Shown piece by piece: positions 916 through 31,430 of a stretch of 31,430 nucleotides of DNA (its first letter is position 1; every line of letters begins with the position of its first letter). Under the pieces are notes generated by a model. That model worked only from the letters and a program-made list of their open reading frames with translations. It was not told the origin of the DNA and did no database searches. The translations under genes were made by a program, and so were the position numbers. Source of the DNA: Candidatus Thorarchaeota archaeon (GTDB lineage Archaea; Asgardarchaeota; Thorarchaeia; Thorarchaeales; Thorarchaeaceae); the NCBI GenBank assembly GCA_029855925.1, contig JAGSHP010000001.1, positions 1-31,430 of the forward strand, written 5' to 3'.

Positions 916-922
916 TTATATA
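916..922 (+). promoter_or_regulatory. Possible archaeal TATA box for the giant gene
   Basis: TTATATA in the intergenic spacer, ~105 nt upstream of the ATG. There is no convincing BRE directly upstream. Confidence 0.3.
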
Positions 923-1013
923 GGAACTTAACCTGCTAATTTTTGAACGTGTCCAGCACCGTACGTGTTGGGATGGTCGATCTTCTGGCCATTAAGTGGG
1001 ACTGTTCACGAAT

Positions 1014-1021
1014 AAGGGAGG
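1014..1021 (+). promoter_or_regulatory. Shine-Dalgarno-like site of the giant ORF
   Basis: AAGGGAGG followed by a 6-nt spacer (TTTAAT) and ATG at 1028. Confidence 0.7.
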
Positions 1022-1027
1022 TTTAAT

Positions 1028-1117
1028 ATGCAATTTAAAGCACACAGGGTTAATAGAGTCCTACTCTTTTTCACCCTAATGTTATGTCTTTCGACAATGA
1101 TACATGTGGCGTCTGCC
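1028..1117 (+). other. Sec-type signal peptide (30 aa)
   Basis: MQFKAHRVNR (basic n-region), VLLFFTLMLCLSTMI (h-region), then HVASA|TE with an A-S-A cleavage motif. Confidence 0.75.
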
Positions 1118-4100
1118 ACTGAAACACCCGTTGAAACACTGTCATTGCCCGAATACATATACTCTTGCTATGACGGCAGTACTGGATTTTCCGACACTCC
1201 CCAGGGAAGTGTGTCATTCTCATCTACATATGATGCAGTGAAGCTGCTGATGGATGAAACGGACCGTTCAGACTGGCCTGTAGGGATGAGCGGAGTATTG
1301 CGGACCATAGGAGATGCATACATCGCACTGCAGAGTCCCGAACGGGGTGGATTTCACTCCTTCAACTCAGCGTCCCCCGATTTTAAGACCACGGCACTTG
1401 TTCTTGAAACACTCCGTCTTCTTGGCAGGATTGATGAAGTTGATGTGGGCATGGTGCGGAGGTACTTGTGGTCCTCATTCAGAGGCAGCTTGACACTTGA
1501 GAGATGGACTACCGAGGGTGACATTGACATGAAATACTGGGCGCTGCGTACTGCTGTCGCCATTGACGATATCCGTGTGCTTGGACTGGGTAGAATCTCA
1601 CTCGACTACGTGTTGTCACCAGACAAGAACAGGGCAGATTACCCTGAGGGCGATCCTTACATGTTCTGGGGTGAGCGCTATCTCGGTCGCAGTGGCTTCG
1701 GTGATGCATTTAATGACATGAAGTTTACGACAAGGCTGCGTGCCATTGAGTCAATTCATATGATGATTAGTGATAAAAAAGAGGCACCGACTCTCATGCG
1801 ACTACTGATTGATGTTGATTCCTTTGTGTCAGAAGTACGAGAAAAGTTTGATATTGAGAGGTACATGTTTACAACAGATAATGGCGACACCGACTATGTG
1901 TTCACTGCCCGTGTGTTCAAGGTACTTGCAGACATTGGCAGGGTCGCAGACCTGTATAGCAGTGATGGACTCGGTGGGCAGAGTTTCACAAGGTCGCTGA
2001 TTGACATAGATAGTCGCCTTGACGGTTTCAGAAATGGTGTATCTCTGAGTGAAACCCCATCATTGTCTAGAATGACCTCACTTAGGCAGATCAGGGCATC
2101 CCTAGACACCATAATCAATCCGACTGTCGTGTACTTTGAACCAGTTTTTGGAAACTCCGACACTGGCATCTCAGACTGGGAACCCCACACTGGTTTCTAT
2201 TTTGGAGAGGAAACCGTGAACATGCTGCGAAACTCTCTCAAGTTTTCACATGATAATATTGATGATCAGCATGTGTCAATGTTCAGTATGGTCGTGATTC
2301 TCTCTGTTATAATGGTGGTGGGAATAATCGGTGACAAAAGGGTGGGCATCGTCCTGACCGTGCTCGTACTGTTGCTATTCATAGGGCAAGAGATCTACGG
2401 CATAGAGAGCGTGATACAATACGCATCATCCTTCGTTTCAGGCATGATTCCACAGTCACATGCTTTGGACCCGCTTGCTATGCGGGGCATGCTGGAAATA
2501 GGCACAAGGTACGTTGAAACGGTATTCACACCGCCAGACGAGGATGCCAGCATGGACTACTCAATGCAGGAGATTGAAATGGGTCCCAAATTGCAGGGAA
2601 CAAACAACCAATTCACGCCAGCCCTCAGCTTGGGTCCTTTCAAGAGCTGGGCGAGTAGATCCATTGCGAGGATAAAGTCCTACATAATTCCGCAGCTCAG
2701 TTCAGACCTTAGAATGGTGTTTGAGAATAATGAAGTCGCACAGAAAGACATAGTATCATTTCGTAATATTGAACTATTGAAAAATGCGGTTTCATCTGAA
2801 GAAGAGAATATGAACCTATTTGGAAATGAAGTCAAAGTGCCGAAGAACTTTGCGAAATTCTACAAAAATCTCGAAAGTGGAAGTTTGACAGCTGATGACT
2901 TCAAAAGTATTGAAATGAAGGGGCACATCCTCACGGCCGTGAGTATTGCGCTGGTCTGTTTCCTTGGTATAAGTCCGCATGAAGCCAAAAATTTAGTTGG
3001 CACATTGAGCGATGTTGTGCTTAGTGTGCGAAATAGCGTGAGTAAAATCTTTGCCAAGTTCGAAAAGAATGGAATTCTGGGCAAGAAGGAAACATTGCTT
3101 TCTATTACAGTAAATGACTTGTTCAAGAAGGATGTAGACTCCTTTGCCAAAGAATTATTGGAGCCAGCAATTGATGATATGAGATCCAAGGGGTATGATA
3201 TCAATGGACTCGAAAATAAAATTGATGAACTCCTGGAGAAGGTCAAGGAATCAGACAGCAAAATACGACTTTACGAGGTACTCGAGTCAATCTTGCGGAT
3301 ACTGGAAAACAGGGATCGTGATAATGATTATAGTAATGTGGCCAACCCTTTGGAAAACCTATATTCAGTCATACTAGCAAACAAAGATGCTGCTAAATAC
3401 AAAGCTGTGACTGGTTCGCCTGAGTTCCTTGCATCCATCACGCAGTTACTGGCGAAGCCAACTGATATGAAAACGCTGCTACATAAAATCTCTAGTACTT
3501 TTGGTAGAAGAGTGCTATTGGAGTTTGGAAAGGGTAGAAATGAGTTGGTGATGACAAAAAAGATGGCTGAGGTTGTACGTCGTATCGGTCTGTTGAATTG
3601 GCTCAGTAAATTTGACATTGATAAGTACTCAGAGAAGAAAGGATATTGCTACGGTGCAAACATAGGAAATGGTCAGGTCGTGGATGTCATCCAACTCTTC
3701 AATCTGGCCATTACTGAATTGGGATACCCCCCTGAGTATGCAATGGGTGATGTCATGGGACTTGCGGGAAATCTTGCCCATCTTAGCCCAGAGTTCCCCA
3801 GTAACAGTGATAGAGGTATCGTGGCAGTATGCATTAACTCTAATGGCAGATTCGTGTACCGAAATAATGAGGCTGTGTTTAAGAAACTTAGATCTGAGAA
3901 TGGCCATCAGTTTCAGGCAGAGTGGAATGGCAAAAGGTTGTTCATCGTTGCTGTAACCGAGCGTGATGATAATGGCGGTGCACGATACAAGGGGGTCTTC
4001 GGACTCCCCCAAAAAATCGCAGATCGTTTGGGGGTGGGAATTGAAACCAAAAATGAACTATCCGACATGAGGGCCATAAAGATTCTTGAGGAGAAAACCA

Positions 4101-7100
4101 ACGATAGGGGAGAACCAATCTTTTTCATCAATGAGAATTCGTTGCAGGAGTTGCAGCAGGAACTCAGCAAGGGCGATGACATCTTCCGTGTGCTAAAGAA
4201 GTTCGGTCTAACAGAGATAGAGCTCAAGTTAGGTCCTGACGGGTCTCAGACCATTATTGGGAAAAAAAACCGCAACGGGGTACCTGTGACAATGTCAGGG
4301 TCTGTTGATAAGAATGTTGTCATTCCATACATCGAAATGGCACTCGAATTCGCCCTTGAGTTACTCAAATATGAGCCAACTTATATTGAGTTCACAGATA
4401 ATGGAAACGGATTGTTGACTGCTCAGGGCAGTGCAAGGACATCTCTGTCCAATTCCATGATAAAAATCACTGAAGATTTTAGCAAAGTGTTTTCACGGGG
4501 CCCACGTCATGGTACAATACGACTCACAGAAACACTGAGTTCTGACATGTCAATCTGGAGGACTGACTCCCGCCAAAATGAACAAACGGGTGGATCTTCT
4601 TCTGACACTCAGACGCCGTATCAACAGATTGATGAATTTCGTAGTAGTCTGATAGAAGAATGTAAAGAACGTTTTCTAGGAGGAAAGGACATTGAGAGCG
4701 GGGTTTTGAGGATAAGAATTGATGACATTACCTTTGCTAAAGATGGAACGATTAGTTTTGGCAAATCCTCGAAAACTGGAAAATATGTCGGGCCAAACAT
4801 TAAGGCATTAATGGACCTGCTAACAGCCAAAGATGATTCATCAAGCCATTCAGACATAGAGAATGGTGGGACCTTAAGAGCAGAGCTGTTCCTATTCCAT
4901 GATCCAAATGAGAATACAGATAAAGCGTTCTTACTCGTGAGTCTGAAGGTAAATAATGAATATGAGCCGATTATTTTCGATGATATCGCCACTATCCTGA
5001 AGAGTCAGACACCCATTCTCTATAAGAATGGAAAAATAGCCGAGTCTCTTAAGGCTCTCTCAGCCGAGGGAGACTATGGGAATGCAGTAGCAAGTGCCTA
5101 TGAGATAGATGAAATACTAACAAATCTGAAGACGATTACTGAGGGTAGTAATAATAATATTGTTGACATGATTACAAAAATAGAGAACAAGATTAATACA
5201 ATTAGGCAAAAAATTAATAATGCGTTCCGAGAACATGTAATTGCAAAATTAAATGATGGGGTCTTGGAAAATAGTGATGTTGTACATGCAGTACATAACC
5301 ATTTAGACACGCTCTTCAACTCTGTGATTGCTGGACGTGCAATGGCAAAGACTGTGATGGCATATATCAAAGGTATTGGAGAAGAGCGAAAAGGAGCAAA
5401 TGTTAACATTGTCGCAGACGCAATCGCACATATTGTGGCAAGGAAAGTTGTGTTTATGGATGCAGTTGACAACGGACTGTTAAAACGTGGAAGTCCGTAT
5501 GAACAATGGGTGAGCACGGACGGAAAGCTTGTCCTTTACAGACAGATGAAGTCGGCAATTGCCCAGTCAACTCACAACTATGGCCGTGCCACTGATGTGG
5601 AGGCATTTCTCATCAAGACGAACATCAATGTTTCAAAACTCAGTAAGACAAAGGCTGCAAGTAAAGGTAACTACGTGATAGAAGGAATATGTCCAGTCGG
5701 TGTCATGGTGAAAGATCACATCGAATCTAGTTCTTATCTTGGGCCAGAACGGGTGAGCAAAATGAGCGATGTGGGTGGATATTACGGTGTGTATCAACGG
5801 CTGATAATTGCTTACCGTTTGAACAAGATAAAAGATGGCGTGCAAGAGCATCACATTGTCACTGCAAAAATGGGTGGGATTGGTTGGGTAGAAACTCTTG
5901 AAATGCTATCTATGTTGTACTCCATGTATGAAATAGCAAATATTATGAAAAAGAATAGTGCAAAAGCATTCATCAAAACGCAGATAGATTTCCTATTGCC
6001 CCCCGATGCCAATAATGACTATGCCGTTGCGTTGAAAGGTGCAATGGATGAGTTTCATGAAATATCTAATGCAATGAAAAAAATTCTGAAAATGTTCGAC
6101 ACTCCAAACTTGAATACCCTAAAACTGCCCATCAGTCGACTACTCCTGAATTGGATGTTACTGACATTGTGTATACCGTACAAAACAGATCCGGGTCCAA
6201 GAATATCTGATGTCAACCATGCCAACATTGTTTCGCTCTTGAACTGGTACAAGAACATGTTTGTCCTCGACCCGTCTATTATGATGGACAACACAAAGAT
6301 GATATTGTCCTCGTTTGCGCCGTTGGGTATTCAGGGAGAGGTCGAGCAGTATATTGCGGGGTGGCTCAAGGCGCTCATCCATGACGATAGCGTGTCCATG
6401 GCCCTCAAACAGGATGTGCTAAATGAACTGACCTACGATATCATTGGATCTGGTCGCCTCGCAGATGACTGGCCGTACCCGCCGTTTCAGATTGGTGAAT
6501 GGAGGTTCATCAACGAGGAGAAAGACGCATGGTACAACCTCTGCGATCCGCAGGACATAACTACTGGTGTCGATTTTGGCAGTGTTCCACTCAGTCAGGA
6601 AGTCCACATCACCGAGGAGATGAAGATTGACAGCATCAGACTCTATGTGACAATGCCGTGGACCGACAATGTTGCAGCGTTCCCGTTCAGGATCTCCGTT
6701 AGTGATGGCAAGACCGTAGCCTCGGGGAGAACAGATGTGTGGAAAGACGGTGTCGTAACATTATCACTTGACAGACAGATTCACGTTAATGATGGTGACA
6801 CTGTGACTATCACACTAGTTGCTCAGGAGACGATGGGACGCGTTTGGCTGACCCATCGGGGTTTGCTGTCTAGGGCACAGGATAAGATGGCTGGTCGTTT
6901 CATGGGCGATGGCAATGAGCTCGAGGGTACGGTGATGTACGTGGCGCTTCACGACGCCATGAAGAGTTCTGTGATTGGTTGGCAGAAGACGGGTATCAGG
7001 TTTGAGTCGGACATAGATGTTGACACCTCCGTGCTTATCGGCGATGGTCAAAACTACCTTGATGCATACTTCACGTCTAATCCCCAGGATAAGATGCCGA

Positions 7101-25100: not shown

Positions 25101-28100
25101 ATTCCAACTATATGACACTGACAGAGGAGGACACAGGTACTCCAGCAACAAATATGGAAGATGCTGTTGATAGTAACTCATCAGATGTGGACTCATCGCC
25201 TGACAAAGGTATTGAATCAAGTTTTGCCAACGCACAGTCCTATGATGGCGCCAGCATGAATATCACTGAAGAGAATACGGGTTGGAGCCCAGAAGAGGGC
25301 TTCAAGACCTACCATGGTTCATTCGAATTCACAAACACGCTCGGTGTCACCACCGATGTAAGTATCGGTGCTGTTGTCAACCCCAATCACGCGTTCATCC
25401 GGGTATACACTGCAGGTTCGTCAACACCGAACACACCCACAGAGGGTGCTGTGTCGGGTTACATCCTTAACTCCACACATATCAGGTTTGAGCGGAACAC
25501 TGCCGTTTCAGGTTTGTGGGTATCATGGTTTGTGATTGAGTGCTTCAACAATGAGTTCACAGTACGTGCACGTGGGGATATCGAACTACTCTCCGGAGCA
25601 ATGACAGGATCCGCGAGTGTTTCGGGGGTACAAGATATCAATAGGGTGATGGTGACGGAGTCTCATAGAGGCAGTGGCAGCAGCACCAGCGACTGGAGTG
25701 ACACATTTGCGAAAGCATACATGACTGATGTGTCCACCGTAATGGTCAAGCGTGCGAGCAATGGTACAACTGTCAACATCAGGTATGAAGTGGTTGAGTG
25801 GCGTACCGACTTCAATGTGTATCGCGGGACCTTTGTAAAAAGTGCTACCACTCAGACGGTGGACATTGGCGGGACAGTGGACCAATCACGTTCATGGGCT
25901 TATGCAACATGGACAGCTCCGACTGATGGGATTCAACAGGTGCAGCTGGCTTATGGAATTATTTCTTCCACCCAGTTAGAGTTTCTTCATTACTCGGATA
26001 ATTATGCATGTGATGTGCAGTGGTATGTTATCGAACATCCGACAAATCTTGCACCGACAATCACGAGATATAGCTATAACTGGGACCCGACCACAAGTCC
26101 GGACAATGTCAGGACGAACGCCATAGGCACTGCGATTGCAACGGATCAAACATTCATACACATGAGTTGTACTACCTCTGGTACTGGTACCGCCTTCAGG
26201 AGAGACTTTAACCTTCCGAGGTTGGTCAATGCCACCTCATGGAGTGAAACGCAGTACAACCCGACTACTGCCAGCTATGATCAGCATGAGACGCGTGCTG
26301 CGGTGATTGAGCTGCCATACTCACCAGGAAGCAGTGACAATTATGAGATCAATGCGGAGTACCAATGGAACACTGCCCACTACACAGAGGTGAATGAAGA
26401 GGTCTGCATATATGTTTCATCTCACAGTGGTACAGAGGTTCTGAATGTTGAGTACTGGGATGGCGCTGGCTGGAGCACCATCGGCACGATAAGCAGCACG
26501 GGTTGGAGCAACATCACGGCGGTGGGTCTCACCAGCAGCACTTACACTATACGAGTGGTTGGCGGTATCGAGGCCAATGACACATCTGCGGACATCTGGT
26601 ACATCGACTACATCGGTCTTCACACATGGAGTGATGCAGTCGTAAACTACGAGATGAATGTCAGATTTGACTTCACAGATGTGGTGACCACACACGACCA
26701 CACTAACCTGACGATTTACACAGATGCTGTGCAGACAGAACCCCTGAACATCAGCATCTACAATGGTGTGGGATGGACAAATCTTGGTCAGATCAGTAGT
26801 GCTGGTTGGAATAACTTCACGATTGATAGCCATGTTGCCTCAACAATCAACATAACCCTGTTTGGTTCCGACGAAAACAATGATGCCACACAGACATCAT
26901 GGGACATCGACTACGTCGGTCTGTACAGCTGGACTGATGCTGTCAGTAACCATAGAACTGAGGCAGAGTTCACATGGAGCAACATTGATACTGGTGCGTC
27001 TGAGGCGTATGTCACGATATACGCAGAACAGTTATCCACAGAGATGCTTGAGGCCTGGGTGTACGATGGTGCATGGCACTATCTCGGAAACATCACTAAT
27101 GCGCATGGTTGGAACAACTTCACAGTCACAAATTACTTTACGAATCCGAGCTTCAAGGTCAAGATAGTGGGCGCCACTGAATCAGCAGACCCCTCTCAAG
27201 ACACATGGCAGATTGACTATGTCGGTCTTGAAACTCGGGTTGTGCAAAGAAAGAACTATCTGGTCAACATTGAGTGGAACTTTGATGGTATCACAAATTA
27301 TAATGAGGACAACGAACAGGTCTGCATCAATGTGCTCACCATGGGTAGTGAGACACTGAATGTTGAGTACTGGGACGGCGCTGGTTGGAGTCTACTCGGC
27401 ACAATTACTGGCATAGGTTGGAATAATTTTACGGCTCTTGATCTCACAGGTTCGAGTTATAAGATTCGACTAACAGGCACAGATGAAACAAAGGACATCT
27501 CACAGGACTACTGGAACATTGACGATATACTCTTGCACTGTTGGAGTGTCCGAAACAACTACGAGCTGAGTCTTGAAACACAGTGGAACAGTGTCGACAC
27601 CAGCGCTGATGATATTGAGTTGTGCATCTATGCGGACACGCTGGATACAGAGGATATCAAGGTGGATATATGGTACAACAGCAGTTGGATGACCGTGCTC
27701 ACCGATCTTGTACCGAACTCATGGAACAATATCACCATCAAAGGATACATTCAATCGTCAACGACAAAAGTGAGGTTTGTTGACGGTACAGCGGCACAGG
27801 ACGAGGCACAGGGATCATGGAATATCGGTTCCGTCCTGCTCAGGTACACGACAAACAGTATCGCAGCACCAATTCAGTATAGTGCAATTGAAACGCCTCT
27901 CATTGGTGGAATGTGGTACACACCCGACTATAACATTACTGTGGTGTCATGCAATGGTGAGGTATATGGCAAGCTGAACGCAACAGCATCTCCCATCACT
28001 GCAAAATGGATGGTGAACGGACCAGTGTACCACGGTGACGCGATCATGATGCGTTGGCGATACACGATTGACACAGACCCTGTGAGTTCCACATATCAAT

Positions 28101-31100
28101 TGATTATTGAGCATGACAACATGAACACGACCCTTGCCATTTTGCCGAACGGGTTCACCAAAGGCACAAGCAACTGGACCCTCACACGCGTGGCACTCAA
28201 TAATATTGGCATAACACATGTCAACAATATCTATATCCGTGCTGAGTCCGGGGTGATGCACATTGACTACATCTGTATTGGTCACGGTGGTGTCATCTCC
28301 ACGGGATTACTTCAACCGAGTGACGTGGTCGGTGACCTGAGTACTACGTCATACGGCTTTGATGTGAGCGGTATGGATCTTGTAGAGTTCACATATGACA
28401 ACATCAATCTCATGGTGTCTAACGACATCTATCTATCGATGAATGTCTACTTGGACTCGAACGATGAACACTATATCGTCATAGACGGCATATATCGGAA
28501 TCAGACAGCTGGCACTGTGACATACATGATTCCAAACATCGTTACGGGATGGAACAAGCTCAGCATGAACATAACGGACATTGTAACCACCTATGGACAG
28601 ATGGATCTCGTCGACAGGGTGACAATCCGAGCAATAAGGCCCTCTTTCATCGTGAGCATGCATGTCGATTGGATAAAGGTCCTCACCCACAGCAGTAAGA
28701 CGGTGATGTCTGATTACATAGAGATAATGGGACTGAAAAACACAGACGGCATAATCATCTACGACATTGCTGATTACACACAGGGTTTCACGCCGACTGG
28801 TGGTAACACGCTCACGGCCGTTGGTGTGAATGGTGAAACTGAAATGAGCGTAAGCATGTTTGTCGGTGACATAGACTACTCTGACCCAATGCCAGCACAC
28901 CAGCTTGCTAACTACCTATATGATGGCGTGCCGCTCGCTGTTACATACTGGCCAAAGTCATCATTGAAGATTACAACTAATGGACATGACATGGATCTCA
29001 GAGTCGAAACACCCAATATGAAATTCACATTGGGTGATGATGTTAATGCGGTGCTCGATTCTGTCGATGTGATCAGGAGCTACGAACAGGTCGAGATACG
29101 GATGACAGGCTGGGTCGACGGGAAACAGATGAATAGGACATATGTGATACGCGACTCGGGTGAAATCAATTGGACAACCTACCTCGATGACACCATGACA
29201 CTGGACAACTTCCGCATCGACAGTAGCTATTTCCGTATACAACCAGATCTACATTACATAAACACCTTCGAAACTGTTAATGTCACTGCTATCTCTGGTG
29301 TAACAACATCACTGACTAGTGCATTAACCGAGGGAAGCAATGCAATTTCCATTCAGTCATCAGCAGCCTCTGGTGGTGTCAGAATTGCGGATGGATTATC
29401 CCTCTCAGGTGATGACTATTGGAAAATTCGGTTCGTTGTAAGACCCACATCTAGTGACATAGACATGAAAGTACAGCTCACTCTTGACGGGTCAGAGTTT
29501 GCATATCTATTGTCAAGAGACAACGATACGCACTTCGAGTATGGAGAAGACCTTGTATATAATGAGCGGCAGGTCATCATGATGGATAGGTATTCCTTTG
29601 ACACCGATCTAACAGATAGGACCATCAAGGCCGTTAGTGTCTACATCGGCAATGGTCATAGTATAATCATTGACGACATGTATATGTCGGACATGCCAGT
29701 TAGTAATGGACCGCAGTTGCTCTGGACCGTGAAGAAGGCAAGCAACAGCAGCTATTACTCCTACCTCGATCCGTCAGTGAGGTACACTGACAGTGACGGC
29801 ATTGTCATGTATTCTCTTGACAGCAGAATCGGTATGTCTGTAAATGCAAACTGTTCAATGCAGAACGGCGACTTCGTAACTCTGCTGAATGGATCACTGT
29901 ATGTTGGTCCATATGCAGATGATGAGTCACACATCTATGCTAGAGAGGTCACACCGTCATCGGTCCTTGACATAGATGAGGAGGGCAGTCTGGTGTACTC
30001 TGTCGACATGCGGAACGGCGAGGACAGAGAACTCACTGTCATATTCAAGAACAATGACAATAGCGTCTTCAAAACGGTGATCGTGCACAGCACAACGGGT
30101 GTAAACGACATTGACAACGGAATTATGTATCTCAACAAGACCCCTGGGAGCATTCATCAGGTACGTCTCTCGATACCCACAGTCCTGTTTATGCTCAACG
30201 AGAGTGGTGATTTGCCTGACCTCTACAGCTTCACAACAAACGTGACGGGACGTGTGGTACAGGTGATGACAAAGCCGGTGTCCCCACTGCTTGAATACTT
30301 CACGGTGTCTACAAAGCTCATAGAGGAGGTGGCAGGCGGTGTTGATGAACAGGGATACATAACTAACTGGATTGCGAGCCCGCGTGATGCGATGGACAGA
30401 TCCCTGTATACATCTAGGAACGCAGAGGAGTTTACATTCATTCACAACCTCCATATATCACAAGAAGACATGGTCAATATGACATCGTCCCACTACCTGT
30501 ATCTCAACTTCTTCACCGATACAGACTTCCCGGACTATGAGAACCACACATCAACCAGCGGTGAAACACCGGTATATAGGATGGCTGACTCTCTGTCGCA
30601 CTCCGGTCTAGAGTACTACTTCGAGCTCACGGTGGAACGCAAGTACACAACAGAGTGGGAATACCTTGACGGTAAGTGGGGCAACACCATCACAGACGAC
30701 TACTACTTCAGCATAGTACAGAAGGAAGTACATGAAGGGTGGGTACAGTCCAGCAAGGTGATAGCCAGTTGGACTATGAGCACATCAGAGGTGCAGCAGA
30801 AGTGGATGTTCTGGGAGTATGACCTCACTCATGGTAGGCTCCAATACAGCTTTGTTGACGATGATGGCACGCCGACCTCCAAGCCGGTCACAAAGACATT
30901 CATACAATATCATGAGCTGAATACATTGACTAGCATAAGCATACTCAAGCTCACCAACAATGCCAGCTTCTACTTAGACGATGTCTCTGTTATGACACAG
31001 AATGGCACAAAAATGATGTTTCATGACGACTTCAGCTATGGTTCCGTAGCCGAAATGGCAACACACGGTGGCTGGGTGTGTAGCGGAGAGTATAATGCAG

Positions 31101-31430
31101 AGCTCACCACTGCAAAGAATATAGGGTTCAGCAGGTCGGTGCTGGATATTGATCCGGTTGTGTTGTGCGACTATGCATCACCAAGTGCACAGATAGAGTT
31201 CGGCGGTGGATGGTACCGTGTGACCAATTACAATGAGACCACCAGTCCCGGATATCTGAGCGGGTTCACGGAGAACATGCTCCAGTACTTCACGACAAAG
31301 TTCTATCAGCACTACTTCACCGTGGTGGATGTTCCGCGTGCCGGTCTTTACAAGATTCAGTTCATCTCCAACAACAATACTGGACGACTGGTCTACATCG
31401 ATGGTGCAGAAGTGACACCTGTCAATAACA
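1028..31430 (+). CDS. Giant secreted, membrane-anchored multidomain surface protein or adhesin, at least 10,134 aa, 3'-truncated by the window edge
   Basis: Codons starting at positions 2 mod 3 were read through the whole window with no stop. It has an SD site plus ATG, a signal peptide, and coherent domain repeats in this frame. No other ORF in the track lies in this frame. Confidence 0.95.
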   Translation, partial: MQFKAHRVNRVLLFFTLMLCLSTMIHVASATETPVETLSLPEYIYSCYDGSTGFSDTPQGSVSFSSTYDAVKLLMDETDRSDWPVGMSGVLRTIGDAYIALQSPERGGFHSFNSASPDFKTTALVLETLRLLGRIDEVDVGMVRRYLWSSFRGSLTLERWTTEGDIDMKYWALRTAVAIDDIRVLGLGRISLDYVLSPDKNRADYPEGDPYMFWGERYLGRSGFGDAFNDMKFTTRLRAIESIHMMISDKKEAPTLMRLLIDVDSFVSEVREKFDIERYMFTTDNGDTDYVFTARVFKVLADIGRVADLYSSDGLGGQSFTRSLIDIDSRLDGFRNGVSLSETPSLSRMTSLRQIRASLDTIINPTVVYFEPVFGNSDTGISDWEPHTGFYFGEETVNMLRNSLKFSHDNIDDQHVSMFSMVVILSVIMVVGIIGDKRVGIVLTVLVLLLFIGQEIYGIESVIQYASSFVSGMIPQSHALDPLAMRGMLEIGTRYVETVFTPPDEDASMDYSMQEIEMGPKLQGTNNQFTPALSLGPFKSWASRSIARIKSYIIPQLSSDLRMVFENNEVAQKDIVSFRNIELLKNAVSSEEENMNLFGNEVKVPKNFAKFYKNLESGSLTADDFKSIEMKGHILTAVSIALVCFLGISPHEAKNLVGTLSDVVLSVRNSVSKIFAKFEKNGILGKKETLLSITVNDLFKKDVDSFAKELLEPAIDDMRSKGYDINGLENKIDELLEKVKESDSKIRLYEVLESILRILENRDRDNDYSNVANPLENLYSVILANKDAAKYKAVTGSPEFLASITQLLAKPTDMKTLLHKISSTFGRRVLLEFGKGRNELVMTKKMAEVVRRIGLLNWLSKFDIDKYSEKKGYCYGANIGNGQVVDVIQLFNLAITELGYPPEYAMGDVMGLAGNLAHLSPEFPSNSDRGIVAVCINSNGRFVYRNNEAVFKKLRSENGHQFQAEWNGKRLFIVAVTERDDNGGARYKGVFGLPQKIADRLGVGIETKNELSDMRAIKILEEKTNDRGEPIFFINENSLQELQQELSKGDDIFRVLKKFGLTEIELKLGPDGSQTIIGKKNRNGVPVTMSGSVDKNVVIPYIEMALEFALELLKYEPTYIEFTDNGNGLLTAQGSARTSLSNSMIKITEDFSKVFSRGPRHGTIRLTETLSSDMSIWRTDSRQNEQTGGSSSDTQTPYQQIDEFRSSLIEECKERFLGGKDIESGVLRIRIDDITFAKDGTISFGKSSKTGKYVGPNIKALMDLLTAKDDSSSHSDIENGGTLRAELFLFHDPNENTDKAFLLVSLKVNNEYEPIIFDDIATILKSQTPILYKNGKIAESLKALSAEGDYGNAVASAYEIDEILTNLKTITEGSNNNIVDMITKIENKINTIRQKINNAFREHVIAKLNDGVLENSDVVHAVHNHLDTLFNSVIAGRAMAKTVMAYIKGIGEERKGANVNIVADAIAHIVARKVVFMDAVDNGLLKRGSPYEQWVSTDGKLVLYRQMKSAIAQSTHNYGRATDVEAFLIKTNINVSKLSKTKAASKGNYVIEGICPVGVMVKDHIESSSYLGPERVSKMSDVGGYYGVYQRLIIAYRLNKIKDGVQEHHIVTAKMGGIGWVETLEMLSMLYSMYEIANIMKKNSAKAFIKTQIDFLLPPDANNDYAVALKGAMDEFHEISNAMKKILKMFDTPNLNTLKLPISRLLLNWMLLTLCIPYKTDPGPRISDVNHANIVSLLNWYKNMFVLDPSIMMDNTKMILSSFAPLGIQGEVEQYIAGWLKALIHDDSVSMALKQDVLNELTYDIIGSGRLADDWPYPPFQIGEWRFINEEKDAWYNLCDPQDITTGVDFGSVPLSQEVHITEEMKIDSIRLYVTMPWTDNVAAFPFRISVSDGKTVASGRTDVWKDGVVTLSLDRQIHVNDGDTVTITLVAQETMGRVWLTHRGLLSRAQDKMAGRFMGDGNELEGTVMYVALHDAMKSSVIGWQKTGIRFESDIDVDTSVLIGDGQNYLDAYFTSNPQDKMPRMWIVATAFNTTTNSTSVEMFNYEFTESRIYSEIPDKSYQNVPVYIYGDGLDSFFVELGLRITDQTNVKYITDNDLIDIVFSRKKGLVVVTTDTVPAKVMLAASSGKTYLREWLEDGNQIVSAGVLPFSNVINNGQKLDTFDFLYGNEISSSGASRITEALITGHSASVTQAQAAIYQNPAGTNNTYTMELGGEVTDDYIELSGNAIDNDGSMTFVFGIAAADCNSTPKRYQTFDITFDGHTIFDRFTLDQLRTANHNLGSSGVFYGNNARLYVQHVGNIEQIDGTVDCDFLMYLTVDGSWFFKGPHTIGIHDRDDNRNPSMQTIRVLELGNIMEYERLNRRETFERVLARYQGVPEIGAGVFAVTGMDMVVKSNEELRSSFTLSNTIGLDPVESIYAIDLSAVSPFKVYGVDLTGKFGEATVRVGGGYFTMIDIVPYSINNWDTIAKLQYVLTGVVGDWTWQHSTLTTDGFGLYVNGQTFEGMTHMVDTVDTKARVHQALVPNRDLKNDGSYANSFDTVSNVSAVNATLEWTNGAVLVNGSAAGASGQFSMTVTGADMTDDYLFVSAYMVNCSLSVNSTVGNIGNVRSNGISMFKLSTGTHTNISFVATSDGDGALFKLYWMSSSKTPFLMSDQQVVVEDFYSVDNLVASGFESDIVTASGGLLTFAHDGLGNDVDSVYFDTEPIHDPRLILEIRHMVNETVQDMVISVVLHSEQRCSGFNQTIVLNPKTSMNTERHHVTLTTIRSIELRLSSPAVSSNMAWIIDWLELSVDSDIALTMDDPMYVSSIGDVVYEIAGDELNIYTNSTTTVEVFIPDVFVNTASYPYMHVKHSNNMTSANITLCTTDGNFSYTLSDTGLDMFNLTTLEVDITSIAVRVTSDGANRTLSLDAIVFSDIATTLNQRNKVTVFYQTDTGLSTIVLDDHLMSWDVGLLTIGNDTWVGSRTETSIVEWTWDVMIVRQDILDTDASVTVMFFNDGLIDFFIDTDSYGVIMNHQYTATKYSDSFGVVNNTVVSDIIRTPTFAAMYGSGVGPAVTALDGERVTASVPMSRFSIDMNANDSAVLIPFVQERFETIAGVEIDPNFVVSITDVSKGGLLSGWTGIIDSQDVAYWDGRFSEVYALHETFSGSSKWIIDNEGQTMDTKTALEKMTAESIDGKMILTLNANESTTETVVMKYNFLDIPVKNYPFFRIVASGDENLTLTVKINITGESVLYDVCTITPTEKNEETIKNIYYILDSAGRPDAVIQGVEIWIEEVSPSKICNKTVMLDEVDIYAISGFEAIIIPNYTNENSVAKSNGAMLTLSADKEKRMRLRRIMEPRIDTTMNRIFQWREYVGYESTINIVVTNSSSSSYVIDEDNTNWAVVTDDVSEILEIAELNITHVSGANTEGESHIDWIRVMKPYTSLYMWEGFDDGSWTPTGGFTLSAFSMPAPSPDNEINEPWTGSVSGQSVERWSSYDADPGSFSNGGHLSIHDATHYEWTQWYIADVTRDHGYTSQHTNINNEQDCGIDDGYKAAQAVGPIATNEYVTAFKVYIKAWEDPLFIGKNVRWRVYSGTETTPNYNSILRSGSFDASTSAFGWYTISFSAIYGSNSYLWISVMGNKYLDHGGGLSNDEHPTADQYVYSRVYWKYDSTSDSSPGGKRYLSGIGSDWYDFAVQYRKYTKYSGSSVYNYGITINWHDSSGNHQQQLSTDGTKVTHSASTDDVWVTAVSSITNINPSRVVSYYKRPTASTSAYFSADPDTEVTTWEFPKDFVLTNYGDHDNTNDGKFRFNKDSSWSYSSISPTGPSVTIVGNQVTVTNVVYGTAYTLTFTQSNTALTITPKRTDSGGNVLEDGPDDVPYLGYSRSTTSAGAGNNGIFYVYGYVWDMIDGHSATLEFSETSSSGLSTYTSSNRQMTYPVDSGLYYRVCWASDSGLKRFCEAEGHYIREPALDTDLSHNPSYDSSQQSNSEHVEVRLDYMYGSSDITMHYRVGGGSWQTTVESGVTHGPTGEQNYAHFTFDDFLGVSDEEKTIEFYFTTNAWGGPHTFDNGGNYWSFYLEDSDTDGPSITSVWPSDHGTVMDNSANVRYGGVYGDGEIKVYATITDPSGIEHAEVHWTYQAGGSGTVSPMEHSGDLYWAWVPIYYVDNPEFSDYLKFNITAYDNDASISSSSETRSHIRVQDDDYLAPTASGLDSGTFIVSQSISDSGICTDYNTGNSGISTSFSNVTWYWTDAPETVYEADTFSITPNMNNGYDWSYTISSSHWTEADEGRQITITLNVVDDDDDRGAIDRMAGSYSCQWTMNDDDTTAPVIEATATSPTMDDSVVQDFVLYAKISDAGPDGVNVVKFKYDIGGTTYGSFRTASDNNGTWWWYNIPYSEWSAEVQNDPSGKTVYFCVYAQDGDNSPLSVQQNDIVGNQVKDNDAQGPSISLVSPIEGSFKYDAEWQTSGIEVCVTISDSSPLDSNSIEFQYREQGYSWGASWYGYTSSGSGKYYFTIPDSWLDAHINSIVEWRVHASDADNSPTSSTSATFSFHADDDDTVIAFSELGLNNPSTMYSDKSYTIRIKITEGSGIDAQWVEWWFTGEAHHEENMTLESQNGNEYIYKFTIAAPGDSRENTFFEWTVHARDTDNDRGDIDKTYQTSHRDNIPIADDDADTPDIYNTVTSGDILDNNTGSYILRVYVNDESPVNVTVWYRYGSGSWYGPFNITDSKVAVNSTASYFTYYIARTGGWLDHIGEMIYWNVTVWDKDNSPLKTEINSMQAGTPTDDDTSAPSLTGEDPSNGASITDGYIVTQTQEKMRVEFRLTDRLSDVSWVKYKWSFNDGPWSDWLDATRWYNPDKTDWWYFDIDSDLLLDNTGKTFRYYLWASNGDNDRPNDAEEYLESYPNNYHWFMIRDDDISEPDLTHVQPSAPVSNTDFTLSFTITDTDGENGESGVSEVVLYYRYNNNASSWMTTTAYSKNGDVYRFTLNLGDDWEAYGIEYLVYVKNGDTDRGLANDAEYGYKTATGSYLSLSNAEGSGWKLAVLDDDTAAPVISDIDTSGVNDGGQWCFNVTLSDMSGIHTAYVSVDGNINQTLILWDSSVDADYFSVDNYYFYVILDPLPLNGYHTIEVFALDDDGVVSSDKLWNSQSVTFLSTDDDIKAPDVKVWIPDAEYDAIATIYANVTDYSGISEITVYFWQGRGVTSASMVLDATYNGTSWRYRYDVSPEQTYWGSMLFAYVYAVDDDYDFSNSSDHSSVITATVYGTIIDSTPPIIDYVTGPVGTVEYSEDNRVWVVAYEPEDASLVSHAYMNYSLNGEWFLVEMGYVNSSLSNGQHYKTFMARLPLRYGATLQYHVICYDNAGNSVTSATYTVESVVDTTQPELLYSQVMYAEPGVNGTLIAKFYEPDIASGLVYVQVNIRLRQSGTWGDLYQTNMTYNSKADTWVFTLPAVSENDEFQYWFSAEDAAGNMFTGENITYVVKDFLEPTIIETGVLNSIEEPNKVAYLRTMFAVETEGVYSLVALRNGAVANMTLWLDGDEIPSGAQVMLSSSVHIVMVRVESADMYAMWGVQVMNMKSEVSINETALAFNLLMPAPPADELRIERVGVLGPMTGNDYYATYSYDDIAIIEGDFENSVDSWEYVNARRLSALGIDGSYALSLCSDTGVEGSASYDYAGNITADALAFYYKFNSNTDYTGLDVSIGYMDGDWLNQTLVINETVTWKQVVIPIRHKEISVVVLSQNTDNTDPYALLIDDVSLVTTELVKTSWSTKMYDDLSPHKLLEVDAGTVTMEYAGYTEFVSQVDTKAVLDVTLVNGVQMDIYSGVVKIASITSSANVPLMVTRGLNVLTVYINATNAKLGFVGMYLRFTNGTQVPVTVLGLNTGLASLTDSESAIIIPLLPELWQVDEQSTTNVTTTANDDTWEIEAEIEVASNDDLTDDIVVFNITEGFDIRVMPVLVSEICTNDTSLMIRYMAELHSASTGESVWVAIDWINASVGNYMTDLTWAAAQQFGTSAGDYDELLSLELWIGDLTGDGAFITDTASVSVLTYFKSRVGHVYETVPRNNGYSSLLSDFDIAMDDFNISSNAFHGYGSALVGGSNGALTIDVSEEPLPEIIRFFCNGTVSVDISISLDGSNYTVNVMDTPAQDSWSTAFTARRETVVGWYEYIIDILSTVKSLAVDNDVMFNEIYIFELTFDSAEASTVVIDSLKLENHREVIVEIPYWDVSMVWETRCLGFHLVGTEGLSSVNQPYYSVDYDGITLETTDRSWYEVTNLFVSNYDTTAVVVQQAYGMGLIITDTYFINNTGYVSLDRNVRKLGSPDLYSNEVMMTFNYDLGKVMQDYYIDSASVPLYDFGGVLLSHASDGIDNTLDVDVVEEDVDSPYFSRSMSTIVDISSYEACNIVSDGDLMRMAPEYNKDSFWAEYSGLNIDNSIAKWLMLSVENVYDYIGYVELYGPSGFLVRHEFNKSGRHTFALSLSENIVAVRIGAESVTLSNILMVDWLTIRERPFVVDLPPTSDLTLRRHYPDFVEDFSDISGWDFEEYNVSSTEYFQCGVNSGMLIFEGYFRESHTDTIELTGLNIDTFKYPNFKMNYQIEQRGLINGQVTFKIHYVKNGVEGVNTYYILTEESTSGDGVVTENLNVTTDGGWVTSIEIAAEGYNGADGAYKVWIDDIVIVEDTLEYYYVFRSPFFSDSFTSVSDWNNADGTGSVTSYLNNDGIKFTSTSTTANFSKDCHLEIRFDSVLEFEIMNGAGTMPDRIWVAFDLHNTTRVDVMEVTSPSATYYRMDLENFTSLEVDKVVFGLEGSGDVLALDYIRISEAYSAHVSCRHIGGWTSTANRLMSDGESVTIEASVGSWSANFMFPEALPSSVYSTLRIEYTLDHSSDGPEIRLRGLNGGDTYDHLSMDEIYEDDWISPFIADGEKHTLYLDVAERFPGNALYRIEIRDTSSEMYNLTIHSINLLEKQDDIARVGSSGWTSAAFMTEDALRLQTIADIQGSYGLQFNISVHGSFAEAIRVEYSSVINADIDAYLYVTTNNTKYEYNIPLSACRTTQIISIANVTDEILDVGITMNYTCSNDEYLWLDIYDLKILSTPLISYDRFESFSAGTATFTDIIETLYHIQTLINEDVVDQTTGTDVGTHSDFTNLQNAITLLDTMTEGLTGTWGFDGEFNVSSYLEVLGAVVEMSTYWHLDEADSGDAGPYIDVADSYNIVFGDLLTSGVLLIQTLGDGETLNITEHDDGTPLSELYTAVVDYHSWTGLISGTITDVQTDDANYMTLTEEDAGVAAVNGEHGYDTSNDNHLPADVGVETLPNNANDGNIVTVMTIAEYNSGEAGNLQFETIKITNVGTDWVDVNFANTYVSPVVIATLEIGAGHDPAVTAVDHRVNAVTSTGCKVKMAIPDHQYGDGSYVNGTIYLFVVEEGSWDVAGLPKIEAGIHTTSTVVANTYDSAGEQVILNSTLWSGVSQAEFFVTVGTENQAATGSKWISAWVNGGSRTTTPTTSSFYISMSSAECTPQDNHPQEDLHYVVIENGIFNYGGMHMQVGRTSDTIDEYTSNNLYTHEFGHTPVWGVNQYLRMDGNNGGWTNWADGPFTSTTIEPYVQEDRWQDSEVAHTTTQVSYILCTMDNYSTSLNGDNYDLDLEYQFNGVDTSTTYANLSIYIGYHNGTEDLNVDYWNGTSWSSLGMVPADIDYQWYNITIKDPDIPIDVLSSDFEIRFDAITNTSDVTHDSWEIGELVIHTWTPAVIDYEMNTKFDWDTTADDTRTYGVVIITVASSSTEAAFIEAWDGATWNRIGTIDSGISSDITYQFDVKNDTVDYILGTNCTIRIIGVDESLDATQDSWDIDLIELHTWTPAVVNYRFDVDFTWNSPVTDAEMSSVCMYFEGNYGNEQLSVYYDNGGGWTNTGEVIPAGLTGWKNITVTGLVTTSTFRIKLVGQSESSDISRDRWDIDYVMLRTSSSITSLTAYDTLTTVYGHWLNQANAQDIGGGYMTVTETENGTQFTDLSDSVDAYLAFTGVVSLFANAQSLDSNYMTLTEEDTGTPATNMEDAVDSNSSDVDSSPDKGIESSFANAQSYDGASMNITEENTGWSPEEGFKTYHGSFEFTNTLGVTTDVSIGAVVNPNHAFIRVYTAGSSTPNTPTEGAVSGYILNSTHIRFERNTAVSGLWVSWFVIECFNNEFTVRARGDIELLSGAMTGSASVSGVQDINRVMVTESHRGSGSSTSDWSDTFAKAYMTDVSTVMVKRASNGTTVNIRYEVVEWRTDFNVYRGTFVKSATTQTVDIGGTVDQSRSWAYATWTAPTDGIQQVQLAYGIISSTQLEFLHYSDNYACDVQWYVIEHPTNLAPTITRYSYNWDPTTSPDNVRTNAIGTAIATDQTFIHMSCTTSGTGTAFRRDFNLPRLVNATSWSETQYNPTTASYDQHETRAAVIELPYSPGSSDNYEINAEYQWNTAHYTEVNEEVCIYVSSHSGTEVLNVEYWDGAGWSTIGTISSTGWSNITAVGLTSSTYTIRVVGGIEANDTSADIWYIDYIGLHTWSDAVVNYEMNVRFDFTDVVTTHDHTNLTIYTDAVQTEPLNISIYNGVGWTNLGQISSAGWNNFTIDSHVASTINITLFGSDENNDATQTSWDIDYVGLYSWTDAVSNHRTEAEFTWSNIDTGASEAYVTIYAEQLSTEMLEAWVYDGAWHYLGNITNAHGWNNFTVTNYFTNPSFKVKIVGATESADPSQDTWQIDYVGLETRVVQRKNYLVNIEWNFDGITNYNEDNEQVCINVLTMGSETLNVEYWDGAGWSLLGTITGIGWNNFTALDLTGSSYKIRLTGTDETKDISQDYWNIDDILLHCWSVRNNYELSLETQWNSVDTSADDIELCIYADTLDTEDIKVDIWYNSSWMTVLTDLVPNSWNNITIKGYIQSSTTKVRFVDGTAAQDEAQGSWNIGSVLLRYTTNSIAAPIQYSAIETPLIGGMWYTPDYNITVVSCNGEVYGKLNATASPITAKWMVNGPVYHGDAIMMRWRYTIDTDPVSSTYQLIIEHDNMNTTLAILPNGFTKGTSNWTLTRVALNNIGITHVNNIYIRAESGVMHIDYICIGHGGVISTGLLQPSDVVGDLSTTSYGFDVSGMDLVEFTYDNINLMVSNDIYLSMNVYLDSNDEHYIVIDGIYRNQTAGTVTYMIPNIVTGWNKLSMNITDIVTTYGQMDLVDRVTIRAIRPSFIVSMHVDWIKVLTHSSKTVMSDYIEIMGLKNTDGIIIYDIADYTQGFTPTGGNTLTAVGVNGETEMSVSMFVGDIDYSDPMPAHQLANYLYDGVPLAVTYWPKSSLKITTNGHDMDLRVETPNMKFTLGDDVNAVLDSVDVIRSYEQVEIRMTGWVDGKQMNRTYVIRDSGEINWTTYLDDTMTLDNFRIDSSYFRIQPDLHYINTFETVNVTAISGVTTSLTSALTEGSNAISIQSSAASGGVRIADGLSLSGDDYWKIRFVVRPTSSDIDMKVQLTLDGSEFAYLLSRDNDTHFEYGEDLVYNERQVIMMDRYSFDTDLTDRTIKAVSVYIGNGHSIIIDDMYMSDMPVSNGPQLLWTVKKASNSSYYSYLDPSVRYTDSDGIVMYSLDSRIGMSVNANCSMQNGDFVTLLNGSLYVGPYADDESHIYAREVTPSSVLDIDEEGSLVYSVDMRNGEDRELTVIFKNNDNSVFKTVIVHSTTGVNDIDNGIMYLNKTPGSIHQVRLSIPTVLFMLNESGDLPDLYSFTTNVTGRVVQVMTKPVSPLLEYFTVSTKLIEEVAGGVDEQGYITNWIASPRDAMDRSLYTSRNAEEFTFIHNLHISQEDMVNMTSSHYLYLNFFTDTDFPDYENHTSTSGETPVYRMADSLSHSGLEYYFELTVERKYTTEWEYLDGKWGNTITDDYYFSIVQKEVHEGWVQSSKVIASWTMSTSEVQQKWMFWEYDLTHGRLQYSFVDDDGTPTSKPVTKTFIQYHELNTLTSISILKLTNNASFYLDDVSVMTQNGTKMMFHDDFSYGSVAEMATHGGWVCSGEYNAELTTAKNIGFSRSVLDIDPVVLCDYASPSAQIEFGGGWYRVTNYNETTSPGYLSGFTENMLQYFTTKFYQHYFTVVDVPRAGLYKIQFISNNNTGRLVYIDGAEVTPVNN
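1142..2100 (+). other. Prenyltransferase/squalene-cyclase-like helical repeat domain, probably degenerate
   Basis: YIYSCYDGSTGFSDTPQGSVSFSSTYDAVKLL and YIALQSPERGGFHSFNSASPDFKTTALVLETLRLLG resemble the Y/F-x-x-S/L-Q-x-x-x-GGF...T-x-x-A/V-L-x-x-L-x-x-LG repeat of the PF00432-type family. Later units are less recognisable. Confidence 0.55.
2273..2386 (+). other. Transmembrane helical hairpin (membrane anchor)
   Basis: VSMFSMVVILSVIMVVGIIG - DKR - VGIVLTVLVLLLFIG: two hydrophobic stretches joined by a short basic loop. Confidence 0.75.
2700..6200 (+). other. Lys/Glu-rich, lower-GC in-frame module of unknown function (~1,150 aa)
   Basis: AAA/AAT/ATT codons are abundant. Two hand-counted 60-nt lines give 22% (5161) and 38% (3121) GC versus 55% at 14221. 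The sequence looks helical or alpha/beta, unlike the acidic beta-rich remainder. Boundaries are approximate. Confidence 0.7.
6470..11310 (+). other. Series of beta-sandwich/jelly-roll (galactose-binding-like) domains
   Basis: Recurrent terminal strands WIIDWLEL (~9385), LSLDAIVF (~9760), VMLDEVDI (~10900) and SHIDWIRV (~11280). The region is rich in Thr/Ser/Asp/Val and NxS/T. Confidence 0.5.
12965..13231 (+). other. CBM25/CBM21/CBM53-like (starch/glycogen-binding-type) domain
   Basis: HVEVRLDYMYG..ITMHYRVGGGSW...IEFYF...FDNGGNYWSF resembles the LHY...W...EF.F...WDNNxGxNY signature of these families. Confidence 0.45.
13232..17446 (+). repeat. 12 tandem Ig-like domains (105-131 aa) with D(D/S/N)Dxx(A/G)P-type linkers
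   Basis: Linkers start at 13232, 13595, 13964, 14315, 14660, 15008, 15356, 15743, 16136, 16469, 16805 and 17132, with a 13th at 17447. Each unit has a D-x-SG-type early motif and a late (A/V)xDxDN motif. Confidence 0.85.
17447..22300 (+). other. Further PA14-like and jelly-roll (CBM-like) beta-sandwich domains
   Basis: FAVETEGVYSL...LWLDG...HIVMVRV (PA14-like). Terminal strands LLIDDVSL, VAIDWIN, VVIDSLKL, LMVDWLTI, VWIDDIVI and LALDYIRI. Confidence 0.5.
23021..23890 (+). other. Triple H-type-lectin-like domain
   Basis: WVDVNFANTYVSPVVIAT...RVNAVTSTGCKVKM, YLFVVEEGSW...KIEAG, and MDGNNGGW...QEDRWQDSEVAHTTTQVSY: three units of about 90-110 aa. Confidence 0.6.
25295..26320 (+). repeat. Four ~80-90-aa repeats resembling phage tail-fibre-associated (gp53/H-lectin-like) beta-sandwich units
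   Basis: The units end in WFVIEC, YEVVEW, WYVIEH and AAVIEL. Internal VSIGAVVNPNHAF, VDIGGTVDQSRSW and IGTAIATDQTF motifs are followed by a L..ST.(I/L).F.R-type motif. Confidence 0.5.
27851..31430 (+). other. C-terminal continuation with more jelly-roll/PA14-like domains (incomplete)
   Basis: Terminal strands MHIDYICI, MHVDWIKV, MTLDNFRI, IIIDDMYM and FYLDDVSV, plus VDVPRAGLYKIQF...LVYIDG at the window end. Confidence 0.5.

Follow-up and report, generated by a model that had tools for sequence, protein, structure and literature searches.

A lineage-restricted giant gene family of Thorarchaeota with a conserved order of parts and a candidate role at the cell surface

Introduction

Among known organisms the Asgard archaea are most closely related to eukaryotes. 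Those that have been cultured live in intimate contact with microbial partners. Halomucin of Haloquadratum is a very long, acidic and probably extracellular archaeal protein, and among bacteria SiiE, LapA/LapF and MpIBP are giant adhesins built of Ig repeats.

Giant genes have already been reported from Asgard archaea. Proteins of more than 3,000 aa are described across Asgard archaea, with tandem giants in Thorarchaeota (Wu et al. 2022, PMC8813620). Of the archaeal proteins with more than 10,000 aa, the majority are of Asgard origin (West-Roberts et al. 2023, bioRxiv 10.1101/2023.11.21.568195), and a further survey counts 23 Asgard proteins of at least 5,000 aa, three of them in Thorarchaeota (PMC11573180).

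Here we analyse a window of 31,430 nucleotides from a Candidatus Thorarchaeota archaeon which contains one giant open frame. An earlier note on this window had stated that proteins of more than 10,000 aa are very rare in archaea and that this one is unannotated. Both statements go too far: the surveys report giant Asgard genes, some of them of more than 10,000 aa, and homologues are on record as hypothetical proteins. Because giant Asgard genes are already known, the value of the present case lies in the definition of a family and in its architecture, not in size. The novelty is that of the family itself, in which the parts keep a conserved order, the range is narrow and most of the sequence is non-repetitive and unannotated; neither the size nor the host is new.

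Results

The open frame and its integrity

The window comprises contig C81 in full. This contig is the longest among the 477 of a metagenome-assembled genome (MAG) of 2.2 Mb that is 74.7% complete with 1.6% contamination. The source reads are from one public run, a hydrothermal-vent metagenome. A search for RNA runs found none listed. The giant gene, whose features are collected in Table 1, makes up about 1.5% of the assembled sequence. An ORF listing that allows open ends gives 10,134 codons from an ATG (1028..31429, forward strand) with no stop and with the 3' end open. The default listing, according to its description, omits frames with open ends, and this may explain the absence of the giant from the ORF track of the earlier note. 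Translation in three pieces and a scripted translation both returned zero internal stops. The frame runs off the end of the window as the earlier note had described, and translated as a partial ORF it is continuous, with no stop. As the window is the entire contig, the open 3' end of the frame is the contig end. The composition of the window predicts stops at 5.3% of codons, so that a run of 10,134 codons would lack one with a probability of about 10^-240. This speaks against a non-coding origin.

The start codon at 1028 is supported by the Shine-Dalgarno-like AAGGGAGG, 6 nt upstream of the ATG, and by the N-terminal M-Q-F-K-A followed by a hydrophobic stretch, which recurs among homologues. 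The TTATATA about 110 nt upstream is a candidate promoter element.

Table 1. Features of the window and of diverged giant-gene fragments elsewhere in the same MAG. Positions are those of the window unless a contig is named.
Feature	Residues	Position	Strand	Remarks
Leucine-rich-repeat (LRR) gene, 3' part		1..828	+	5' end cut by contig; Pfam LRR_8 E 1e-40
Intergenic region		829..1027	+	TATA-like TTATATA 916-922; Shine-Dalgarno-like AAGGGAGG 1014-1021 (read from sequence)
Giant open frame		1028..31429	+	10,134 codons, 3'-open at contig end
Signal peptide	1-31	1028..1120	+	basic N-terminus, hydrophobic core at residues 11-29, AxA site VASA|TE
Divergent prenyltransferase-like alpha/alpha toroid	~32-410	1121..2257	+	PF00432 sub-threshold; ESM Atlas
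Transmembrane (TM) hairpin	416-434 and 441-459	2273..2404	+	DKR loop; Kyte-Doolittle 2.77 and 2.24
Lys-rich, fast-evolving, membrane-proximal region	460-1720	2405..6187	+	low GC3, nearly without N-x-S/T sequons
Family-defining conserved module	1721-2700	6188..9127	+	18 relatives, 27-43% identity; AF2
Lectin-like jelly-roll domain	~1830-1983	6515..6976	+	
ThuA-like / GH42-domain-B-like alpha/beta domain with inserted beta-sandwich	~2061-2479	7208..8464	+	
CBM-like jelly roll	~2533-2657	8624..8998	+	
Non-repetitive acidic region	2701-4071	9128..13240	+	best conserved part among giants
Array of 12 Ig-like domains, ~115 aa each	4072-5478	13241..17461	+	many DDDxxxP-type linkers
Non-repetitive region	5479-7140	17462..22447	+	colinear with G033 and G026
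Lineage-variable region	7141-8963	22448..27916	+	duplicated segment and eight 103-aa modules
Conserved C-proximal region	8976-10134	27953..31429	+	31-32% identity to G033 and G026; cut by contig end
Diverged giant-gene fragment		C436 3-3731		conserved module, 33% identity
Diverged giant-gene fragment		C418 3-2900		C-proximal sequence, 47% identity to G033
Diverged giant-gene fragment		C127 191-1975	-	C-terminus with stop

The frame is a genuine single gene, conserved in a Thorarchaeota family, and not a mis-assembly. That it might be an artefact, either a chimera of the assembler or a non-coding open frame, could be argued from the fragmentation of the MAG into 477 contigs and from the fact that the source contig and the final contig of a second assembly both end at base 31430. 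This reading is effectively refuted: it is opposed by the negligible probability of such a frame arising by chance, by colinear homologues in other genera along the entire length and by read depth. In the Logan assembly of the source run, four contigs tile positions 11431-31430 at a depth of 13.5-14.8 without joints, and a single contig of 9,255 nt crosses the lineage-variable region. The Logan contigs were built from the same read set and are only partly independent of the source contig. The two assemblies differ at four bases only (11584, 11632, 11635 and 28835), which suggests minor strain variation. One Logan contig break, at 21161-21190, coincides with a low-depth tip that bears transposase-adapter sequence. 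The coverage check for chimerism that the earlier note had proposed thus comes out in favour of one gene, i.e. even depth and no joints over the last 20 kb together with colinear homologues, of which we regard the homologues as the stronger argument. The GC3 of the giant gene (0.551) is that of its genome (MAG mean 0.557 +/- 0.045).

Homologues are colinear with the giant

A phmmer search with residues 1500-2699 against 1.84 billion representatives found 18 relatives with 27-43% identity. A profile of these relatives located the conserved module in four other genomes, the first 60 relatives having been searched, and all four belong to the same GTDB family. Two homologues, which come from two other genera of this family, are comparable in size: that of G026 (contig C28, locus L012) is a complete frame of 9,987 codons with stops on both sides, and that of G033 (contig C25) is a frame of 9,749 codons running off its contig. 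BLAST joined residues 1640-7123 of the giant with residues 1685-7091 of the G033 protein in one alignment of 5,667 aa at 32% identity, and residues 8976-10129 with residues 7708-8907; the G026 protein is likewise colinear with the giant. In a three-way alignment the identity is mostly 25-51% over residues 1-7100 and 9000-10134, with lower values for G026 in the Lys-rich part. The proteins differ mainly in the number of Ig-like units and in extra material at residues ~7750-9000.

The homologues that carry a name in NCBI are all from Thorarchaeota and are recorded as hypothetical proteins. Two homologues have Laminin_G_3 (E 4e-27) and DUF2341 (E 1e-17), and the complete G026 protein is as devoid of family matches in sequence searches as the giant itself. 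Split homologues were seen at two loci, in G015 (C40 16382-26745, L016/L017; frames of 900 and 2,568 aa, a short form of ~3,450 aa) and in a JGI contig (L002 3127-25153; frames of 4,008 and more than 4,114 aa). In both, the consecutive frames overlap by 25-40 nt and the split points differ. They could reflect frameshift errors, decay or genuinely split genes.

Host and distribution

The host is of Asgard type, as the earlier note had surmised. The MAG shares its GTDB family with G015 (Candidatus Thorarchaeota archaeon BLK6-1.bin.124; its contig C40 is JAWOEX010000024.1), it encodes the archaeal/eukaryotic ribosomal protein L21e and has 26 matches to Ras-family small GTPases in 2.2 Mb (best E 4e-53), and all named homologues are thorarchaeotal. 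Such an expansion of small GTPases is a typical Asgard trait. In this MAG, of which 75% is present, the Pfam models of actin and Snf7 had no match and rRNA was not detected. Several of its other contigs are made up of long open frames (1,500-2,300 aa) that have no relation to the giant family.

The giant gene is an accessory, lineage-restricted trait, found in one GTDB family only. The module profile matched 5 of the 85 other genomes of the family and the C-proximal region 7 of 85, so that the two family-specific probes combined found 9 of 85. Outside the family, each probe and the two combined matched none of the 314 Asgard genomes of the phylum's other families, a count in which distant homology could be missed and which may not include Heimdallarchaeum. 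Nor did these two probes have a match in the four other genomes of the genus, of which two are 97-98% complete. The N-terminal probe did match G002 and G004, both of this genus, but its matches were restricted to the first 100-220 aa. In G002 (C2 60805-61494, L024) the match is a frame of 256 aa, 43-45% identical to the N-terminal ~220 aa of the giant, which ends ~160 nt before the contig end and may be a remnant.

The missing 3' end and a second copy

Beyond the residue that matches the last one of the window, the G033 protein continues for at least 842 aa and the G026 protein for 1,282 aa to its stop. Roughly 0.85-1.3 thousand residues are therefore missing from the window, and the full-length protein probably has about 11,000-11,400 aa. 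The contig could not be extended to the stop, as the earlier note had suggested: an overlap with the 3' end of the gene was found in none of the MAG's contigs, and the Logan contig stops at the same base.

Three other contigs of the MAG carry fragments that are 33-47% identical to the giants (Table 1). The fragments on C418 and C127 were considered as a continuation of the giant gene and rejected, since C418 overlaps the last 260 aa of the window at an identity of only 39.5%. All three fragments come from a second, diverged copy, either a paralogue or a second strain. Both C127 and G026 terminate in 3-5 hydrophobic helices of moderate Kyte-Doolittle values (1.2-1.7). These helices, known from the homologue and the paralogue, the giant's own end being missing, may be a membrane anchor. 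The C-terminus is 31-41% identical among homologues, i.e. it is not polymorphic.

The N-terminal part

The signal peptide (Kyte-Doolittle peak 2.07) is conserved in G026, G033, G015 and P0014, and its likely cleavage site would be VASA|TE. The domain that follows is likely a divergent member of the PF00432 fold. The Pfam model itself scores 22.2 bits (E 1.1e-4), below the gathering cut-off of 26.5; nine of the 16 N-termini of homologues match it at E <= 0.01, the best at 1.1e-6, and the ESM Atlas clusters nearest to the N-terminal 460 aa (score 0.92) consist of thorarchaeotal and promethearchaeotal PF00432 proteins. The TM hairpin is retained by every homologue that has an N-terminus and is found at the same place in G026, G033, G015, P0006, P0009 and P0014. 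These results agree with the N-terminal anchor that the earlier note had read from the window. With the signal peptide cleaved and a hairpin behind the toroid, the toroid and the rest of the chain should both face outward, and the toroid is accordingly predicted to lie outside the cell. Extra TM segments at residues 630-648 and 1700-1717, which would put the Lys-rich region into the cytoplasm, were considered and dismissed as they are not conserved in homologues. The unit of signal peptide and toroid, with or without the hairpin, also heads shorter frames of the family (376-1,466 aa), namely on G012:C3, G029:C13, G015:C20 and G026:C61 (L019-L023).

The Lys-rich region has a GC3 of 0.437 against 0.557 for the MAG, i.e. 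about 2.7 standard deviations lower. Its identity among homologues is 15-19%, and the alignment was too poor for folding. No match was found in Pfam, in the PDB or in the ESM Atlas (queried with residues 460-1700). The earlier note had taken the region for a foreign cassette. This reading is rejected: every homologue is likewise rich in Lys and poor in sequons here, the shift in composition is a family trait, and the low GC3 is for this reason no sign of foreign origin.

The conserved module

The module is what defines the family. Its alignments (A2, A3) contain many invariant W, G and P residues, and the AF2 model, with a mean pLDDT of 71, has the beta-jelly-roll fold of the CBM4/29/86 type. 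In Foldseek searches the hits among PDB entries were BcsB, a Cry protoxin and CBM29, and those among AFDB entries were surface proteins of the DUF4082, CBM and MAM types, with low global TM scores throughout. An ESM Atlas search with the module gave nothing usable. Judging from the predicted folds, the module would most likely bind glycans.

The distal chain

The acidic region behind the module is 29-48% identical to G033 and 35-46% identical to G026; it has no internal repeat and no Pfam match. The Ig-like array that follows had been recognised in the earlier note, and the Ig-like fold of its tandem beta-sandwich domains is now predicted at a pLDDT of 95. The 12 domains make up ~14% of the chain. 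Against Big, cadherin and PKD families the array gave sub-threshold matches only (Big_13 E 0.0013; profile against PDB cadherin E 0.25-0.7). The acidic DDDxxxP linkers are suggestive of putative Ca2+ sites, though suggestive only. In the G026 homologue the Ig-like units are in two arrays of 5 and 6 units (homologue residues 4173-4738 and 6817-7500), in place of the giant's one of 12, and the array has therefore moved or re-expanded within the family.

From residue 5501 onward the next non-repetitive region (to residue 7140) is 26-39% identical to G033 and 20-36% to G026. It contains no internal repeat, and an [ILVM]-D-[DWY]-[ILV] strand motif closes several of its modules; iterated HMMs did not link these modules to one another. 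The lineage-variable region is poorly covered by G033 and G026. Its duplicated segment lies at residues 7141-7350 and 7980-8094, and its eight 103-aa modules at 7632-7956 and 8437-8945.

In all, the chain has only three internal repeat families, which account for ~25% of it. This upholds the view that the protein is not one simple repeat. The earlier figure of at least six domain types is plausible: the toroid, the TM hairpin, the Lys-rich region, the three folds of the module, the Ig-like domain and the 103-aa module speak for it, in a count that was checked in part. For the other ~75% of the chain, profile windows found no internal repeat, and there is no sequence match in Pfam, NCBIfam, PHROGs or the PDB. 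PDB sequence searches with the giant protein and with profiles A1, A2 and A4 yielded nothing above threshold. Searches of Pfam, NCBIfam, PHROGs and PDB sequences detected no enzyme, toxin, peptidase or glycosidase family anywhere in the 10,134 aa, and Laminin_G_3 is not detectable with Pfam in the giant itself.

It is conspicuous that N-x-S/T sequons are unevenly distributed. Residues 31-1720 (positions 1118-6187) have one sequon where 12.7 +/- 3.3 are expected (none of 2000 shuffles was as low), which agrees with the sequon desert pointed out in the earlier note. Residues 1721-10134 (positions 6188-31429) have 126 where 97.4 +/- 8.7 are expected (4 of 2000 shuffles were as high). A second sequon-free stretch is at residues ~3490-4010 (0 against 6.5 expected). 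The split into a depleted and an enriched part is also present in G026 and G033. The distal part is strongly acidic as well, with 1154 D+E against 433 K+R. The pattern of sequons and charge would fit a distal part that is exposed and glycosylated and a proximal part without glycans.

Genes next to the giant

The upstream LRR gene has a 24-aa 'IDLSPL' repeat with a 72-nt tandem period. At each of three loci an LRR gene with this repeat sits directly upstream of the giant gene (window 1-828; G026 L013:10375-12093; JGI L002:1968-2912), on the same strand in the window and divergently in G026 and L002, and the whole MAG has only three 'IDLSPL' LRR ORFs. The two complete LRR neighbours, those of G026 and L002, are without a signal peptide, so the LRR protein is no obvious match for a system that is wholly extracellular. 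At the loci examined, genes upstream of the giant include LRR, DUF11, radical SAM and tRNA-guanine transglycosylase-type genes. The housekeeping or metabolic neighbours are a tRNA-guanine transglycosylase-type gene (DUF5591, TGT_C2, PUA), radical SAM, NiFe hydrogenase and a proteasome gene. There is no tRNA gene in the window or in 8 homologous loci; neither a MinD/ParA gene nor an integrase was seen beside the giant gene at the loci examined, where the assembly of the window lacks the downstream side of its gene; and beside the complete homologues no small gene resembling an immunity gene was noted.

Discussion

On balance we favour, with some reserve, the reading of the giant as a membrane-anchored surface tether or adhesin, its mechanism included. 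The protein would be exported through its Sec-type signal peptide, and the TM hairpin just after the extracellular prenyltransferase-like toroid would hold it in the cell membrane. The remaining chain would lie outside the cell and begin with the Lys-rich, unglycosylated region as a membrane-proximal spacer. The lectin-like/ThuA-like/CBM-like module would come next and most likely bind glycans. It would be followed by ~8,000 acidic residues, mostly in unique beta-sandwich modules together with the rod of 12 Ig-like domains, probably N-glycosylated and reaching far from the cell. In homologues a cluster of moderately hydrophobic helices ends the chain and may fasten its far end to the membrane again. 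The protein would most likely act as a surface tether or adhesin that binds a polysaccharide or the surface of a partner cell. We infer glycosylation, glycan binding, export and adhesion from sequence features.

The earlier note had proposed a glycosylated surface appendage. The surface make-up stands, considering the signal peptide, the hairpin, the Ig-like and CBM-like folds, the acidic and sequon-enriched distal part and the Laminin_G_3 and DUF2341 domains of homologues. A free appendage is an overstatement: as the C-terminus may also be anchored, the protein may be a loop or tether instead. A more far-reaching proposal is that a chain of ~11,000 aa, tied to the membrane by the N-terminal hairpin at one end and by C-terminal helices at the other, and with a conserved membrane-proximal core of toroid, sequon-free Lys-rich stalk and glycan-binding module, works with the LRR neighbour and holds or senses syntrophic partners, in a new design specific to Asgard archaea. 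This we hold to be improbable.

The same features can be read in other ways. A protective or structural coat, i.e. a hydrated, acidic, glycosylated layer round the cell that is tied at both ends, is an unlikely alternative that nevertheless has several points in its favour: the acidity and the sequon enrichment of the distal 8,400 aa, the possible second anchor at the C-terminus, and the length of the mostly non-repetitive chain. A hydrated, glycosylated protective layer has been proposed for halomucin. The gene is sporadic, however, being found by two probes in 9 of 85 family genomes and in none of four of the same genus, which is unexpected for an essential envelope layer, and the lectin-like and CBM-like folds suggest specific binding. 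The accessory, patchy occurrence and the diverged second copy in the MAG would also agree with a contact-dependent effector or attack protein of the kind of CdiA, the MARTX toxins or the 'archaeovorins' of Omnitrophota, whose stalk delivers a membrane-active or enzymatic C-terminal part. The hydrophobic helical C-terminus of homologues could serve as such a part, and the ThuA-like/GH42-domain-B-like domain is of a kind found in carbohydrate-active enzymes. We give this reading little credit, given that the searches of all 10,134 aa found no enzyme, toxin, peptidase or glycosidase family, that complete homologues have no noted immunity-like neighbour, and that the C-terminus is conserved and not polymorphic.

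Patchiness would also suit the cargo of a mobile element like the Heimdallarchaeum 'aloposons' with their tandem giant genes. Two loci have a homologue in the form of two consecutive large frames, and tandem giant genes are mentioned for Thorarchaeota MAGs by Wu et al. (2022, PMC8813620). We consider this very improbable, as the loci examined are without the tRNA, MinD/ParA and integrase genes, the neighbours are housekeeping or metabolic, the GC3 is native, and the A2 module and the C-proximal region had no match in the 314 Asgard genomes outside the family. The reading as an anchored surface tether or adhesin is the one that we retain.

Little is known about the Asgard cell surface, and the giant is a defined candidate for the biology of the surface and of cell contact in Thorarchaeota. 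It is among the largest archaeal genes, and although its order and sequence are conserved across genera domain databases recognise next to nothing of it. For a giant surface protein it is unusual that three quarters of the chain consist of unique sequence and not of repeats. Its ~1,000-aa and 100-aa modules are open to expression and testing.

Comparison with known systems

The bacterial Ig-repeat adhesins SiiE, LapA/LapF and MpIBP resemble the giant in their long tandem Ig-like rod, in acidic linkers (DDDxxxP in the giant) and in ligand-binding modules of the lectin/CBM type. They differ in that the giant is anchored by an N-terminal TM hairpin and has only ~14% of its chain in Ig-like domains. 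RTX repeats, a type-1-secretion signal and a Big/cadherin Pfam match were not found in the giant, and the complete G026 protein likewise has no Pfam family of the RTX or type-1 type. Halomucin, going by its general description, is similar in length and acidity, whereas the giant starts with a toroid and a TM hairpin and consists of ~75% unique sequence. The nearest relatives of the giant's N-terminal 460 aa are stand-alone prenyltransferase-like toroid proteins (PF00432) of Thorarchaeota and Promethearchaeota. In the giant this unit has a Pfam score below the cut-off and is fused to more than 9,600 further residues, and nothing suggests that it carries out prenyl transfer outside the cell.

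The reported Asgard giants (PMC8813620; bioRxiv 10.1101/2023.11.21.568195; PMC11573180) belong to the same phylum and the same size class. The architecture found here is not described in the passages of these surveys on giant genes, and the family may or may not be among those drawn in Extended Data Fig. 7 of PMC8813620. The aloposon giants Otus and Ephialtes, as they are described in PMC8813620, have a tRNA downstream and a four-gene set with MinD/ParA upstream, and neither was found at the loci of the present family. The archaeal 'huge proteins' with Laminin_G_3/concanavalin-like domains (PMC11573180) are, like the giant, very long, acidic and probably extracellular. As far as that description goes, the family differs from them in that Laminin_G_3, carried by two homologues, is not detectable in the giant, and in the same N-terminal start and unique sequence that distinguish it from halomucin. 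On the level of single domains the closest likeness is to BcsB-type and CAZyme accessory domains (CBM4/29/86, GH42 domain B, ThuA-like), as the conserved module likewise joins jelly rolls to a flavodoxin-like/ThuA-like alpha/beta domain.
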